IMG/VR virus record: IMGVR_UViG_3300028998_000054
Span: 1-6,902 of that record
Origin: a virus
Length of the DNA: 6,902 bases
Reading direction: 5' to 3' (one strand)
Shown: positions 1,693 to 6,902 of the stretch, one piece after another
Position numbering within the stretch: the stretch's first letter is position 1
Layout of the letters: the number at the start of each line of letters is the position of its first letter
Translations under genes and position numbers: made by a program
Notes under the pieces: generated by a model
What the model saw: the letters and a program-made list of their open reading frames with translations, nothing else
What the model was told of the DNA's origin: nothing
Database searches by the model: none

Positions 1693-3324
1693 TTATCCTC
1701 TACCACTAAAAGCTTTAAAAACCAACATTGCCGAAATAAAATAAGCCATAAAAATAAAAACATAGCGCAATTTTTCGACGGCCATACAGACATAAGACAT
1801 CGGAAGCTGATGAGTTCCGAATTGCCCAAAATCTAAAGTTATATCTTGAGGACATGCGCCACCTGTACTAAATGCTGATGACGGCTTAAATGTGCCAAAA
1901 TCGCCATTTGATTTAAGACCGCCCCAGTCAGGCTCGCCATCTCCATTACCAAAAGGAGAATCAGGCATTTCAGGCAACTCCGAATCTTGGCCACCACCAC
2001 CACCGCCTGAACCATTCGTTCCACTTGTTCCACTTCCGCCTGTCGTTTCACTTCCACCGCTTCCGCCAGTCGTTCCACTTCCACCGCTTCCGCCAGTCGT
2101 TCCACTTCCACCACTTCCGCCTGTCGTTCCATCTTGACCGCCACCGCCACCATTTCCGCCCCCTTGCTTACCGCTGTCGGGCGTTGTGGCGTGGTCAGCT
2201 CCGCTTCGACCACCGCCACCACCGCCCCCAGCGGATGAGCCATTAGGGCTTGATGATTGTGCGTCTTGTTTATTTGAAGAACTCGAAGAGCCAGTAGAGC
2301 CGACAGTTGAAATTTCTGTTTTCGGTTTGTGTTTATAAGTGCAGACTACTGAAAATGTACCGTTAGATTTCTTGCCAAAGGTCATATTTGAACCCGGGCC
2401 ACAATCCCCATCCTGTGAAGATACTTTATAAGTACTAATACTGGCGGAACCTAAAGGCCTACCACCAGAACTATCAGGCTCATAAACCTGACAAAACGTC
2501 CCCCCGCTAAAATGCTCTTGCATTCTCATTGCCCAACCATTAGAAGTAGTACCAGTACACGCACCTTCTAAAGTATCTGAAACAGCTCCTGTATCATCGT
2601 TTACATAAATATCTTCAACTTTTCTACCAGAACTTCCGCCACCGCCATGACTTCCACCACCGCCACCGCCTGAGCTTCCGCCACCGCCTGAGCTTCCGCC
2701 ACCGCCATGGCTTCCACCACCGCCATTGCTTCCGCCACCGCCATGGCTTCCACCACCGCCATTGCTTCCGCCACCGCCATGGCTTCCACCACCGCCACCA
2801 TTACCATTCGTTCCGTTATTTTTATTTTTTTCCTTTTCTTCTTCCTGACGTCTTTGCTGTTCTTTCTTTACTTGGATTTCTCTCAATAGCTTTTGGTATT
2901 CGTTTTCATCTTCCAAAGCCTTTTTTAGCTTCTCCTTTTCGATTCCAAGCTTTTTTGCGTTTTCGGCCACGTCCTTTTCACCCATACTTATTTTTTTATT
3001 CCCCGAATTATTGGGCAATACATCTTCAATATCAAAGACTTGCATTTCCTGTTTTTTACCCTTTGAACCTTGATACTCAGTTCTATAAAGACACTGGTCT
3101 AGGACACAGGCAACTTTTGTTATTGTGGTAATGTGCGTGATACCTGTTTTTTTATCCAAAATGCCTATTTGTTTCGGCTCCCATAGACTTGTCATATCAT
3201 TGAGGCGTTTATCAGTTCTAAATCCCCAAGTAACATCTCCGACTTTTGCAGTATCTGCAAATGACGGAACAGGAAATAAAAAAGCGACCGCCATTACTGC
3301 GACCGCTAGAAAATTTTTTCTCAT
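1693..3324 (-). CDS. pIII-like minor coat / adsorption protein with Gly-rich linkers.
   Basis: 543 aa. Signal peptide MRKNFLAVAVMAVAFLFPVPSFA and cysteine-containing N-terminal domains. Two long Gly/Ser-rich linker repeats, (GGGGSHGGGGSN)n and (TTGGSGGSG)n. C-terminal membrane anchor YVFIFMAYFISAMLVFKAF. Its position follows the major coat gene. Confidence 0.8.
   Translation of the reverse strand: MRKNFLAVAVMAVAFLFPVPSFADTAKVGDVTWGFRTDKRLNDMTSLWEPKQIGILDKKTGITHITTITKVACVLDQCLYRTEYQGSKGKKQEMQVFDIEDVLPNNSGNKKISMGEKDVAENAKKLGIEKEKLKKALEDENEYQKLLREIQVKKEQQRRQEEEKEKNKNNGTNGNGGGGGSHGGGGSNGGGGSHGGGGSNGGGGSHGGGGSSGGGGSSGGGGGGSHGGGGSSGRKVEDIYVNDDTGAVSDTLEGACTGTTSNGWAMRMQEHFSGGTFCQVYEPDSSGGRPLGSASISTYKVSSQDGDCGPGSNMTFGKKSNGTFSVVCTYKHKPKTEISTVGSTGSSSSSNKQDAQSSSPNGSSAGGGGGGGRSGADHATTPDSGKQGGGNGGGGGQDGTTGGSGGSGTTGGSGGSGTTGGSGGSETTGGSGTSGTNGSGGGGGGQDSELPEMPDSPFGNGDGEPDWGGLKSNGDFGTFKPSSAFSTGGACPQDITLDFGQFGTHQLPMSYVCMAVEKLRYVFIFMAYFISAMLVFKAFSGRG
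2017..2135. repeat. Tandem 27-nt coding repeat, about 4 copies, encoding TTGGSGGSG units of the pIII linker.
   Basis: The unit cgttccacttccaccgcttccgccagt is repeated at 2017, 2044, 2071 and 2098 with minor variants. Confidence 0.8.
2631..2808. repeat. Tandem 36-nt coding repeat (18-nt sub-period in places), about 5 copies, encoding GGGGSHGGGGSN units.
   Basis: The ccatgg motif recurs with a 36-nt period (2705, 2741, 2777), and ccgcctgagcttccgcc is duplicated. Confidence 0.8.
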
Positions 3325-3706: not shown

Positions 3707-3922
3707 TTAACCGCGCAGGAAGCTTGAAACCAAACGGAAAGCTTTAATAAGCACGTACACGCCAATCAAAGCAACACCCACAGCAGTTACTACCGGAGCA
3801 ACCTTTGCAAGTTCACCCGTAATACTGGCAGACACATCGCCAATACCTTCGGCCATAGTCAAAGCAGAAGCGGTTGCCAGAGTTGCGCCAACGGCGACTT
3901 TTTTCAGATTTGCGAGTTTCAT
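3707..3922 (-). CDS. pVIII-like major coat protein.
   Basis: 71 aa. Signal peptide ending ALTMA. The mature part (about 47 aa) has an acidic N-terminus (EGIGD), a hydrophobic core (VAPVVTAVGVALIGVYVLI) and a basic C-terminus (KAFRLVSSFLRG). Confidence 0.8.
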   Translation of the reverse strand: MKLANLKKVAVGATLATASALTMAEGIGDVSASITGELAKVAPVVTAVGVALIGVYVLIKAFRLVSSFLRG

Positions 3923-3981: not shown

Positions 3982-4293
3982 TTATTTCTGCGGATTGCTT
4001 TCTTTTTTGATATTCACAGGCTGGATGTCAACAATCACGTTTTGAACGCGATTACCGTTAGTCTGTACTTCAATATCGATTTCCGCTTCAAACGGCAATG
4101 GAATGCCGTTGAATTTTTCAAAATTTTCAGAAGTACCGAATTTCATCGGCTCGGTTGCTGAGCCACGCATATCAGCGTTATCACGCGCAAATGGAAACTC
4201 GACATAAACCGTTGTCGAATCATAGGCCTTGCCTGTATCGTTCATCACGCCTTTGGAACGTTTCAAGCCTTGCACCTTAGCGAACATTTTCAT
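3982..4293 (-). CDS. Probable ssDNA-binding protein (gene V / RstB analogue).
   Basis: 103 aa hydrophilic ORF immediately downstream of rep and upstream of the major coat gene. Size and position match filamentous phage ssDNA-binding proteins. No sequence motif confirms this. Confidence 0.5.
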   Translation of the reverse strand: MKMFAKVQGLKRSKGVMNDTGKAYDSTTVYVEFPFARDNADMRGSATEPMKFGTSENFEKFNGIPLPFEAEIDIEVQTNGNRVQNVIVDIQPVNIKKESNPQK

Positions 4294-4324: not shown

Positions 4325-5548
4325 TTAGTGATTTAAATAGATTTCTCTATCTTCCAAAACCATGCCGTAATCATCAATCAATTCCAACTCAATAGAATCT
4401 TTATATTCGTCATGGATAAATTCTAAATACCGCTTATCTTGCAGAGCATAAGACGCGGGATTTACTCTTTCTGGCAACGAGCCATCTTTTCTTTTAAGGC
4501 ATTCAACAATTTCCGAATCCGACATTCCCAGTTGCAACATCATATTAATTGCACGGCCTGCCTGATTACTTGCGACTTCCTTAACTCTTTCTATTGAAAT
4601 CTCAAGTCTTTTTAATGCTGAAACCGTTCTTTCCGTTGAACCTTTTTCCTGAAATTTCTCGCATATCGGAAATGCGCCACCCCAAAACTGACCGGGGAAA
4701 AGAAGAATATCTAAAGGAAGAATACAATTCCGACCCATGAATTGAAGCTCAAATCGGCACCAATTAACGCCTGAAACGTCACCTTGCTCTTTAGCTTTGT
4801 CATAAATTCGCGCATAACATGATGACTGTTTAGAGCCTATGCCCAACGTCTTACCTGTATTCGTATCATTCAACCAATCAGACCCAATTTGCGAAACCAA
4901 AGGTTTTTTTCCGCGCTTATTAAACTCTCCATTGTTATAGGAAACCCAAGCAGAATCGGGCGAAATTTCGCATTCGAAAAAATCTTTTGCTATATCACAA
5001 CGCGTTATTTTGGGATTTTTCGCAAACATCAAAAATTTATATAACCGCTTTTCCCAGCCGTCTAAAGCAACATTGCAACCTTTACCGCTCAACTCAATCA
5101 AAAGGGTGTCATTCTGACCGCCGATATAGACTTGACCATACAGAACGCCATCAACCGAAATTTCCCATCGTTGTCCATAAAATCGACCCTTTCCGACCGG
5201 AGCAGGGGACGACACGCCGAACCCAAATATAAACTCTGAAATTTCCGACCAATTCCTTATAACGTCATAGTCAGAAATCGGCGTTGAGATTCCTACTTGC
5301 TTACCGTCAACACAAAAACCAGTCACTGACGATTCGTGGAAAGTGAAGCTCAGCGTATCAATAAAAGCCGAGTTACCCAGCCCCTTACGAAGAGGAACGG
5401 CTTTAATATTGCCGTCATAGTCAATAACGTACTTTTCATAACGTTCGTATTCTTGAGCTTCGCAGTAACTGTCTGAATCTCGACCCCCCCTGTTAGATAG
5501 GGGGGGGGCATAAGCCCCAGAGGTTTTAAGCTGTTCAATCTTTCTCAT
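4325..5548 (-). CDS. Rolling-circle replication initiation protein (Rep_trans / RstA-like).
   Basis: 407 aa, first large gene of the leftward operon next to the divergent promoter region. Its length, position and sequence character fit phage replication initiation factors of Neisseria and Vibrio filamentous phages. This family assignment is from memory, not a search. Confidence 0.7.
   Translation of the reverse strand: MRKIEQLKTSGAYAPPLSNRGGRDSDSYCEAQEYERYEKYVIDYDGNIKAVPLRKGLGNSAFIDTLSFTFHESSVTGFCVDGKQVGISTPISDYDVIRNWSEISEFIFGFGVSSPAPVGKGRFYGQRWEISVDGVLYGQVYIGGQNDTLLIELSGKGCNVALDGWEKRLYKFLMFAKNPKITRCDIAKDFFECEISPDSAWVSYNNGEFNKRGKKPLVSQIGSDWLNDTNTGKTLGIGSKQSSCYARIYDKAKEQGDVSGVNWCRFELQFMGRNCILPLDILLFPGQFWGGAFPICEKFQEKGSTERTVSALKRLEISIERVKEVASNQAGRAINMMLQLGMSDSEIVECLKRKDGSLPERVNPASYALQDKRYLEFIHDEYKDSIELELIDDYGMVLEDREIYLNH
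5484..5508. repeat. Homopolymer pair C7 (5484-5490) and G9 (5500-5508) separated by TGTTAGATA. On the coding strand this is C9...G7 within rep codons 15-22.
   Basis: Read directly. The pair forms a 7-bp G/C stem with a 9-nt loop and encodes PPLSNRGG near the Rep N-terminus. Confidence 0.9.
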
Positions 5549-5750
5549 TTAGCAACCCCAAATCCTCTTTTTCCAAGCCATAAGAAACAGGAATTGCAAT
5601 ACCAGCAACAACCCAGACTTCCGCACGAGAAACAGCAAGAACTTGAGAGCAATCATGAAAATATAACGTATTCAACAAAACGTTATTTTCACGACATTCA
5701 ACGCGCCATCCTGCCTCTTCTTGAATCACTTTTGCACTACGCTTTTTCAT
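5535..5750 (-). CDS. Small hypothetical protein upstream of rep. Its stop overlaps the rep start by 14 nt.
   Basis: 71 aa ORF with AAAGG 7 nt upstream of its ATG. It runs in the same direction as rep. An alternative antisense ORF exists (5594-5854 +), so this call is uncertain. Confidence 0.4.
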   Translation of the reverse strand: MKKRSAKVIQEEAGWRVECRENNVLLNTLYFHDCSQVLAVSRAEVWVVAGIAIPVSYGLEKEDLGLLNEKD

Positions 5751-5904
5751 GTTTTGACCTTTTTACAACACATAACTGTTATTTGCATTCATGCATGCAT
5801 TTTTGGCATTGTATTCATGTATGCAAATATGCACAATACAAATATGCTTGTTAACAAGTAACGCCTTGTTTTATATTGCATAAAAGTTTTAGGAAAAATG
5901 ACGC
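5751..5904. promoter_or_regulatory. Divergent promoter/operator region between the leftward rep-structural operon and the rightward regulatory module.
   Basis: AT-rich 154-bp gap. Palindrome ATGCATGCAT (5791-5800) and direct repeats CAAATATGC at 5824 and 5839. Perfect 12-bp palindrome CTTGTTAACAAG (5847-5858) overlaps a -35-like TTGTTA, with a -10-like TATATT at 5872-5877. AGGA at 5891-5894 lies 10 nt before the ATG at 5905. Confidence 0.55.
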
Positions 5905-6093
5905 ATGAAATCACTGAGAATCAAAGAAGAGCAGGAAGAGAGCATTAGACGGCTTGCCATCAATGCCAATAAGAAACTGATACAGCTTGGGCGCGAACCG
6001 CTGAAAGACAGCGAGCTTGCCCATATACTTCTAAACGAAGCAATCAAACGCGCCTACATCGGCGAAGACGGCGAAATCACGATTAAGAAATAA
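5905..6093 (+). CDS. Small putative DNA-binding regulator, with a possible ribbon-helix-helix-like fold.
   Basis: 62 aa. N-terminal short beta-like segment (KSLRIK) followed by two predicted helices. First gene after the divergent operator. Its stop overlaps the next ORF's start in TAATG. Confidence 0.45.
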   Translation: MKSLRIKEEQEESIRRLAINANKKLIQLGREPLKDSELAHILLNEAIKRAYIGEDGEITIKK

Positions 6094-6314
6094 TGAAATC
6101 CTTAAAAAATCTATTGCTTATTTCAATAGGCTTTTCAATCGGTTATTTCACTGGATTCATACAAGGGGAATCAAAGGCAATTGAATGCCTAAAGACCCAA
6201 AAACCGACAGAGCTAAACTTATACTGTCTTTTTTCTTCCCCCAACGTCGAATTTATCGAACTGGACAAACTCGAAGAAACAAACCTACAAAATAAGGAGC
6301 AAACGCTCAAATAG
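6093..6314 (+). CDS. Small single-pass membrane protein of unknown function.
   Basis: 73 aa with N-terminal TM helix LLLISIGFSIGYFTGFI. Translationally coupled to the upstream ORF through a 1-nt overlap. Confidence 0.45.
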   Translation: MKSLKNLLLISIGFSIGYFTGFIQGESKAIECLKTQKPTELNLYCLFSSPNVEFIELDKLEETNLQNKEQTLK

Positions 6315-6338
6315 AGAGCGTTTGCTCATTGAATTAAA

Positions 6339-6361
6339 ATAAGCCCCGGAAAGGGGCTTAT
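6339..6361 (+). promoter_or_regulatory. Stable hairpin ATAAGCCCC-GGAAA-GGGGCTTAT (9-bp stem) that ends 1 nt before the start codon of the HTH gene.
   Basis: Perfect inverted repeat. The 3' arm contains the only SD-like sequence, AAGGGG, 6 nt before the ATG at 6363. No T-tract follows on the plus strand, so it is more likely a translational or processing element than a simple terminator. Confidence 0.5.
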
Positions 6362-6362
6362 C

Positions 6363-6692
6363 ATGGCAACACAATCTGAACTCATCGACCAAATCAAAGA
6401 CAGGCTTTTTATACTGTCTGACTATGCTTTATCTCAACGCTGGCAAGTAGAGCCGACCCGAATCAGCCAATACCGACGCGACCGTCTGCGACTTCCTATT
6501 CGGTTTATTGAGGACATTGCCGAACAAATCGGCATTGACGCGCTATCACTTATAAAAATGCTTGATACGGCGCGACTTACCAAGCAAAACAAGGACGCCT
6601 CAAAAATCTTATTCTGGCGACCAAACGAAAAAGTCAGACGTTATCCGCCACCATGGGTAGAGCGAAAACACTTTTTCAGACGAAAACGCTAG
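6363..6692 (+). CDS. CI/XRE-type helix-turn-helix regulator, a candidate phage repressor analogous to RstR, with a strongly basic C-terminal tail.
   Basis: 109 aa. Residues about 18-45 (LSDYALSQRWQVEPTRISQYRRDR) fit an HTH helix2-turn-helix3 pattern, followed by further helices (IRFIEDIAEQIGIDALSLIKML). C-terminus RKHFFRRKR. It is divergent from rep and adjacent to the att-like site, like rstR in CTXphi. Confidence 0.5.
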   Translation: MATQSELIDQIKDRLFILSDYALSQRWQVEPTRISQYRRDRLRLPIRFIEDIAEQIGIDALSLIKMLDTARLTKQNKDASKILFWRPNEKVRRYPPPWVERKHFFRRKR

Positions 6693-6719
6693 TTCGCATA
6701 ATTTGTCGTTTCGTCAAAT
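6691..6719 (+). other. dif-like site (candidate XerCD attP). AGTTCGCATAAT matches the XerC arm plus the first central base of Neisseria dif, followed by a degenerate XerD-side arm.
   Basis: AGTTCGCATAA TTTGTC(G) TTTCGTCAAAT compared with Neisseria dif AGTTCGCATAA TGTATA TTATGTTAAAT as recalled from memory. The XerC arm matches 11/11. The central region matches 3/6. The XerD arm matches 8/11 only if the spacer is 7 nt. Confidence 0.5.
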
Positions 6720-6760: not shown

Positions 6761-6802
6761 GCCACGTGGCAGGCGGGCAGGAAATAAAACCCTTTCCTGC
6801 CC
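6761..6802. repeat. Perfect 10-bp palindrome GCCACGTGGC (6761-6770), then a hairpin with a perfect 10-bp stem, GGGCAGGAAA (6775-6784) / TTTCCTGCCC (6793-6802), and an 8-nt loop.
   Basis: Read directly from the sequence. It is non-coding, lies just before the terminal repeat, and is part of the structured intergenic region. Confidence 0.8.
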
Positions 6803-6803
6803 A

Positions 6804-6902
6804 CCTACCACAAGCGTGTTCCTTGAACTTTTGGGAATCAAGGGGGTATTCATAAAGATTGGGAAAAAAGCGCTCCCAATCTTTACAAAACTTCCCCCTT
6901 GA
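6804..6902. repeat. Right copy of the terminal direct repeat. It is identical to 1-99.
   Basis: Perfect 99/99 identity with the window start. Confidence 0.9.

Follow-up and report, generated by a model that had tools for sequence, protein, structure and literature searches.

The virus record IMGVR_UViG_3300028998_000054 of IMG/VR, whose 6,902 nucleotides were analyzed as a whole and are called the window here, carries a G/C hairpin at positions 5484-5508, close to the 5' end of the gene rep. This gene (4325-5548, minus strand) encodes a 407-aa rolling-circle initiator of the Rep_trans family (PF02486, Pfam E 5e-26). The hairpin is very probably the plus-strand origin, ori(+), that is the nick hairpin of the double-strand origin (dso), situated inside the gene of its own Rep_trans initiator. 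A stem of G and C, a loop with CT'AA (the apostrophe marking the nick) and a PF02486 gene in cis are all three present in the window. The nick is predicted between T5495 and A5494 of the minus strand, both the nicking and its exact position being deduced from homology. We hold it equally probable that the origin is the primary function of the element, and that slippage in its tracts is a consequence of the origin architecture and not the reason for its existence. The stem arms are homopolymers lying inside an open reading frame (ORF), and slipped-strand errors in them therefore shift the frame of rep. An earlier note on this DNA had proposed a phase-variable switch and, instead or in addition, an intragenic origin. 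Both proposals are supported in this study, with the order of importance reversed and the origin placed first.

On the plus strand of the window, the element consists of C7 (5484-5490), TGTTAGATA (5491-5499) and G9 (5500-5508), exactly where the earlier note had located it. The sense strand of rep, which is the minus strand of the window and the viral strand, reads C9-TATCTAACA-G7, i.e. CCCCCCCCCTATCTAACAGGGGGGG. Codons 14-22 of rep are GCC CCC CCC CTA TCT AAC AGG GGG GGT and encode A-P-P-L-S-N-R-G-G. The 5' arm (5500-5508, minus strand; C9 in sense, G9 on the plus strand) covers codons 14-16, the loop with the CT'AA core follows at 5491-5499 on the same strand, and the 3' arm (5484-5490, minus strand; G7 in sense, C7 on the plus strand) covers codons 20-22 (AGG GGG GGT). 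The complementarity of the arms over 7 bp, noticed before, was confirmed as a perfect C:G stem, which extends to 8 bp with the adjacent T:A pair; the loop has 9 nt. No other G/C homopolymer of at least 7 nt is found in the window, and the pattern C7-N9-G7 occurs once in it and in none of 200 dinucleotide-preserving shuffles. The minimum-free-energy fold of the sense strand as single-stranded DNA (ssDNA) includes the C:G hairpin with CTAAC in the loop, and the wider fold of 111 nt is unexceptional (z = -1.7). The 25-nt core is identical in more than 15 independent assemblies from different projects, which disposes of the homopolymer artefact that had been considered possible; with more than 100 independent assemblies, a sequencing artefact is ruled out.

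A total of 165 rep loci, comprising 790,940 bases, were fetched by Rep homology from viral and genome collections. Scanning the genome contigs with a single protein gave nothing, and the relatives were retrieved by an alignment-based scan. Screening with the pattern C-run / N2-8..TAA[C/T]A / G-run detected the element in 134 of the 165 loci, in one copy each and on the sense strand only, with no antisense match; 20 shuffles of all loci, searched on both strands, gave 5 matches in total. The element always lies 77-165 nt upstream of the conserved motif AFIDTLSFTF, and the loci without a match are mostly 5'-truncated or carry slight variants. Its hosts are distributed over Neisseriaceae, Rhodocyclaceae and some Gammaproteobacteria, and include Neisseria, Kingella, Eikenella, Snodgrassella, Uruburuella, Rhodocyclaceae, methanotrophs and Aquirhabdus. 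The loop core [C/G]TAA[C/T]A is invariant across the relatives. The comparison of tract lengths among related prophage copies, suggested earlier as a check, revealed length heterogeneity, with arms from C4 to C13 and from G5 to G9. G7 is the modal 3' arm, present in 70 of 77 relatives with an intact rep, and the variants G5, G6, G8 and G9 were found mostly in broken genes.

The hairpin is also present in cultured phages. In phiLf2 of Xanthomonas (locus L188, 8-33) and phiSHP2 of Stenotrophomonas (L189, 35-60), GACTCCCCT-cgtCTAAc-AGGGGAGTC is located within the first 60 nt of rep, and RSS1 of Ralstonia (L187, 347-374) has a GC-stem hairpin with a GTAA variant of the loop 140 nt into rep. A literature search found no paper naming this hairpin as the origin of RSS1, phiLf2 or phiSHP2. 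In one relative, L020 (IMGVR_UViG_3300006317_000129, 1250-1320), the C-tract has grown to about 25 C's and unrelated GC-rich sequence has taken the place of the loop and G-arm; either the tract expanded without check and the origin was rearranged, or the contig was wrongly assembled.

The reading frame of the element is not the same in all lineages. Among the 77 intact genes, the core is read as xCT AAx (..SN.., PPLSNRGG-type) in 51 and as CTA AYA (PPRLTGGE-type) in 26, and the third frame, in which TAA is in frame, was found only in broken genes. The rare codons AGG, GGG and CCC, as well as the synonymous positions, are fixed at the element. Two metagenome-assembled genomes (MAGs), of Kingella (L119) and Alysiella (L120), have the hairpin upstream of the rep ATG. 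Compensatory stems of mixed sequence were discovered as well, namely CCCTACC/GGTAGGG in L099, CCCCTC/GAGGGG in L165 and GCCCC/GGGGC in L123. Protein homologues down to about 30% identity share an N-terminal PP-x-SN-R/T-GG motif, and several natural homologues start downstream of it, for instance at ..EYERY. Because of the two reading frames, the non-coding cases, the compensatory stems and the homologues starting downstream, the constraint is on the DNA hairpin with its CTAA loop and not on the peptide. The intragenic origin suggested before thus gains support from the conservation at the DNA level in 134 of 165 loci, from the two frames and the compensatory stems, and from the match of CT'AA to mapped nic sites.

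The window's own clade, with 85-99% identity, is composed of three saliva inoviruses from GenBank (OR148965-7), six IMG/VR contigs and eleven metagenome contigs, which are largely circular or tandem, as expected of a replicating phage. Among its 14 distinct haplotypes, the 25-nt core varies at 2 of 25 positions, compared with 25 of 90 and 30 of 120 in the flanks. The two variants in the core are a C-to-T change at the first C and one A-to-C change in the loop. Two independent contigs, L174 and L178, have C11 and G8. Apart from this C+2/G+1 change, L174 differs from the window only in the attachment gene, within its Gly-rich repeat; the tract changes, +3 in sum, leave Rep intact and turn the peptide APPLSNRGG into APPPYLTGGG. 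Judged from these haplotypes, the tracts do slip in the lineage of the window, and selection keeps the frame and the hairpin and not the peptide. No OFF allele was seen among the 14 haplotypes, only substitutions and the one compensated C+2/G+1 variant.

Single slips simulated in the window shift the frame at codons 16-22 and give products of 18, 37 or 65 aa. The earlier expectation that a slip would truncate Rep after about 15-22 aa holds for the point at which the frame is lost and fails for two of these three product lengths. Among 115 non-redundant contexts, rep is broken at the hairpin in 38. The 19 broken loci for which a closely related intact locus exists differ from it almost always in nothing but tract length; in four, the T next to the G-run is lost. 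Within related clades, C10 is intact and C9 and C11 are broken, and likewise G7 is intact and G6 and G8 are broken. Homologous tracts have been described in Neisseria gonorrhoeae, where Zelewska et al. 2016 (PMC5320596) listed (C)8TTATCTAACA(G)7 in NGO_06135 and NGO_06695, two 'replication initiation factor' genes, among the repeats that are candidates for translational phase variation; over six strains the tracts range from C6 to C11 and from G5 to G8, and they vary in Ion Torrent and Illumina reads of passaged cultures (PMC5320596). By comparison of these alleles, the tracts are a real frameshift hotspot, and reversible switching of rep in prophages is plausible. Selection maintains the frame in the lineage of the window. 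Among the relatives that are chromosomal prophages, +/-1 alleles are frequent, with rep turned off, possibly reversibly. The idea of phase variation is supported for the family, by the gonococcal variation and the broken relatives; the clade of the window has shown only the frame-preserving double slip and no OFF allele.

The following course of events is proposed for the hairpin. In supercoiled replicative-form DNA the C-run and G-run would extrude as a cruciform, or they would fold as a hairpin in ssDNA, and the loop TATCT'AACA would thereby be exposed on the viral strand (rep sense, window minus). Rep would then cut between T5495 and A5494 and become linked through a tyrosine to the 5' end, and the 3'-OH would serve as the primer for rolling-circle synthesis. 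The regenerated hairpin would be used in termination and re-ligation. On this basis the origin hairpin might double as a selected, reversible switch, in which the rolling-circle cycle itself makes the +/-1 alleles that turn the initiator off and on, though we regard this extension as rather unlikely. The cycle is considered as the source of such alleles because the 3' arm AACAGGGGGGG coincides with the sequence directly 3' of the nick, and this sequence is made anew at termination in the pT181 model. If true, lysogens would gain heritable, stochastic control of phage production, and it would account for a third of the related prophage rep genes being out of frame exactly there.

Several points weigh against the assignment of the origin to this hairpin. 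A search limited to the literature at hand found no mapped nick for this phage or for any Rep_trans inovirus of Neisseria or other betaproteobacteria, and no origin described for the filamentous phages of Neisseria. CTXphi, the best-studied Rep_trans inovirus, is without such a hairpin on its sense strand, and the rule is thus not universal. No convincing Rep-binding repeat resembling inverted repeat III (IR-III) of pT181 was found beside the hairpin by the ssDNA fold and an inverted-repeat search. A weak imperfect inverted repeat, GAGATTCAGACAG..CTGCGAAGCTC, just 3' of the hairpin (5455-5481, minus strand) appears in the ssDNA fold and was not returned by the inverted-repeat search; it is poorly conserved within the clade and is no more than a candidate for the site of Rep binding, in analogy to IR-III. 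Larger intergenic hairpins (20-114 and 6766-6811) could in principle contribute to the origin. Moreover, the information-content profile of the element is partly circular, the sequences having been chosen by the pattern, and the non-circular evidence consists of the match rate, the position and the strand.

The tracts could alternatively be primarily a selected phase-variation switch, turning replication ON and OFF through rep, with no origin function. Their lengths vary over C4-C13 and G5-G9 among the relatives and explain most of the broken rep genes, their gonococcal homologues, which are on a published list of candidate phase-variable genes, differ from strain to strain and within passaged cultures, and a slip in the window would cut Rep to 18-65 aa. 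This explanation is nevertheless improbable, as the element is kept far outside Neisseria, also where it is non-coding (L119, L120) or where its stem is not homopolymeric, neither of which a switch in translation would explain, the conserved loop core CTAA and arm complementarity are needless for slippage, and there are no OFF alleles in the 14 haplotypes of the clade. It is far less probable still that the homopolymers are merely the codons of a functional N-terminal Rep peptide (PP-x-SN-R/T-GG). PPLSNRGG or a close variant does occur in most full-length homologues, down to about 30% identity; however, the second frame (PPRLTGGE or PPYLTGGG) is used in 26 of 77 intact genes and in the near-identical L174, the synonymous positions are fixed, natural homologues begin downstream of the motif, and the element stands upstream of the ATG in L119 and L120. 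In the pT181 family, moreover, the peptide that the origin region encodes is dispensable according to the review PMC5703833.

A role in mRNA, as a transcription terminator or attenuator or as a structure modulating translation early in rep, is very unlikely. Judging from the ssDNA fold, the RNA would likewise form a stable hairpin of G:C pairs, 40 nt into the ORF; but no T-run follows the stem, the sense strand continuing with TCGAGATTC, a terminator scan of 5300-6000 gave no terminator-like site, and an Rfam search gave no match. Such a role would also leave the invariant CTAA loop and its identity with the DNA nic sites of relaxases unexplained. Finally, there is hardly any likelihood that the hairpin is a recombination or attachment site for chromosomal integration. 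Folded ssDNA hairpins do serve as attP in CTXphi, and the Nf phages of Neisseria integrate at inverted-repeat dRS3 sites. In chromosomal copies, however, the hairpin is kept inside the prophage at the 5' end of rep and not at a junction, dif-like sequences flank an integrated relative (L173), and a dif-like half-site also occurs in the window, at 6692-6703. The nick hairpin of the plus-strand origin is thus the reading that we prefer for 5484-5508.

The window is an essentially complete, circularly permuted filamentous-phage genome. Its exact 99-nt terminal direct repeat (1-99 and 6804-6902) gives a unit length of 6803 nt, and the record is therefore taken as a circular contig of this size with an assembler overlap. 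The genes for morphogenesis and replication are on the minus strand: zot (159-1355), DUF2523/g6p (1366-1689), a TspB-like attachment protein (1693-3324), coat protein B (3707-3922), an RstB-like ORF (3982-4293) and rep. The similarity of Rep to 4cij, a solved structure of a Rep_trans protein, is weak but significant. In the family alignment, its motifs RxD (R183/D185), YxKxxE (Y249/K251) and WxRxE (W263/R265/E267) are invariant or nearly so, and they agree with the published definitions of the Rep_trans motifs. The TspB-like gene contains Gly/Ser-rich (GGGGS/H) repeats at 2688-2742, the site of the other difference of L174, and the attachment protein evidently varies by repeat rearrangement.

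Next to rep, a 71-aa ORF (5535-5750, minus strand) shares 14 nt with the start of rep. It gave no match in a Pfam search and is among the annotated ORFs of the GenBank relatives. RSS1 and VCY likewise have a small ORF abutting rep, and such an ORF may be translationally coupled to rep or act in regulation. The rep operon and the plus-strand ORFs (5905-6692) diverge, and the region between them contains a 20-nt inverted repeat, TATTTGCATTCATGCATGCA / TGTATTCATGTATGCAAATA, at 5780-5829. Hexamers resembling promoter elements adjoin this repeat on both strands, and it looks like an operator. Positions 20-114 and 6766-6811 belong to one intergenic region of the circle. It has large nested inverted repeats, with 24-nt arms (20-43 and 91-114) around a 12-bp perfect hairpin (50-82), and a second hairpin of 19 bp at 6766-6811. 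The packaging signal and the minus-strand origin may lie in these two structures.

No recombinase is encoded among the genes of the window, unlike the Nf1-4 prophages, which carry an IS110 transposase. The dif-like half-site at 6692-6703 reads GTTCGCATAAT, and in the integrated relative L173 the repeats ..ATAATATAAATTATGCGAAC.. and ..AATAAATTATGCGAAC.. at 5680-5710 and 12690-12715 adjoin host genes. The sequences of these sites suggest XerCD-type integration at dif. Head-to-tail dimers were also observed among the related metagenome contigs, with copies 6885 nt (L176) and 6779 nt (L180) apart.

A commensal Neisseria is a plausible host on the evidence of sequence signatures. Just downstream of zot, at 129-140, there is an exact AGGCCGTCTGAA, the DNA uptake sequence of Neisseria in its AG dialect (AG-DUS), a dialect typically found in N. 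subflava, N. flavescens, N. mucosa C102, N. elongata and oral taxon 014. It speaks for a commensal Neisseria in spite of the phage's GC content of only about 42%. The nearest relatives borne by isolates are from N. sicca, N. lactamica and N. uirgultaei. The gene flanking the integrated relative is uninformative on the host, its best named matches being scattered over Haemophilus, Pasteurellaceae, Moraxella and Neisseria, and the DUS dialect is the better clue.

The kind of element was already known, and phase variability of homologues had been reported. The new part is modest and comprises a further probable Rep_trans nick hairpin, that of this phage, the interpretation of the gonococcal 'phase-variable repeats' as arms of a Rep_trans nick hairpin, and the translation of the same cis-site in two frames across lineages, with a coding sequence fixed by a DNA site. 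Homology thereby locates the likely plus-strand origin and the probable nick for widespread oral filamentous phages of the Neisseria type and, by extension, for the Nf/MDA/Ngo prophages of pathogenic Neisseria and the cultured phiLf2 and phiSHP2. This is of help in annotation, in the construction of phagemids and in deciding whether a given prophage is still able to replicate. It would also tie the architecture of the origin to a mutational on/off liability of the initiator gene.

Among known systems, CTXphi is an integrative filamentous phage whose RstA is a Rep_trans initiator, and the gene order rep-rstB-coat-...-zot is the same as in the window. It has no C-run/CTAA/G-run hairpin on the sense strand, and its origin is placed upstream of rstA, in ig-1. 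The gonococcal genes NGO_06135 and NGO_06695 carry the homologous (C)nTTATCTAACA(G)n at the 5' end of a Rep_trans gene of filamentous prophages, and ten of our loci (L051-L058, L103 and L113) display the same tract-length pattern as these genes. In PMC5320596 the tracts are handled solely as simple-sequence repeats, and the words 'hairpin' and 'phage' are absent from the paper. The gonococcal copies are chromosomal Nf-type prophages with an IS110-type transposase, whereas the circular 6.8-kb genome of the window has no gene for a recombinase, and the variation in its clade, unlike that of the gonococcal copies, is frame-preserving only.

The RepC and RepD proteins of the pT181 family are Rep_trans initiators which, like the Rep of the window, have a GC-rich inverted repeat in the 5' part of rep, with the nick at its tip. 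The earlier note had stated that the nick site and origin of pT181 lie inside the 5' part of repC. This agrees with the pT181 sequence, where inverted repeat II (IR-II), AACCGGC-TACTCTAATA-GCCGGTT, falls in repC codons ~22-33, and with the part of the review PMC5703833 that places the dso of this family within rep. The loop TCT AAT is read Ser-Asn in pT181, in the same frame as TCT AAC in the window. Single-molecule work has shown that nicking of the GC-rich repeat in this family needs cruciform extrusion in negatively supercoiled DNA. The two elements differ in that the pT181 stem is mixed (AACCGGC/GCCGGTT) and not slippage-prone whereas that of the window is homopolymeric, and in that pT181, a plasmid of Gram-positive bacteria and not a phage, has a well-defined IR-III binding site directly after IR-II, of which no counterpart was found in the window.

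The MOBT relaxases, including NicK of ICEBs1, RelSt3 of ICESt3 and Orf20 of Tn916, are PF02486 enzymes like the Rep of the window. A passage of PMC9371924 describes their nic site as CT'AA in the loop of a G/C-rich hairpin, mapped for ICEBs1 NicK; this site is conserved in the ICESt3/Tn916/ICEBs1 family and is called identical to the dso of Rep_trans (PMC9371924). The origin of transfer (oriT) sequences are ACCCCCCCACGCTAACAGGGGGGT in ICEBs1 and ACCCCCGATTTCTAATAGGGGGGT in ICESt3. The MOBT elements are conjugative ICEs of Firmicutes, whose enzyme bears a helix-turn-helix (HTH) at its N-terminus, whereas the window is a filamentous phage of Proteobacteria in which the element is translated; the ICESt3 hairpin is situated between genes, 68 bp from the binding site (PMC9371924). 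Like the hairpin of the window, the nic site of the MOBT relaxases is found at the 5' end of the enzyme gene or just upstream of it, and the alignment of ACCCCCCC-ACGCTAACA-GGGGGGT from ICEBs1 with CCCCCCCCC-TATCTAACA-GGGGGGG from the window reveals an identical CTAACA core.

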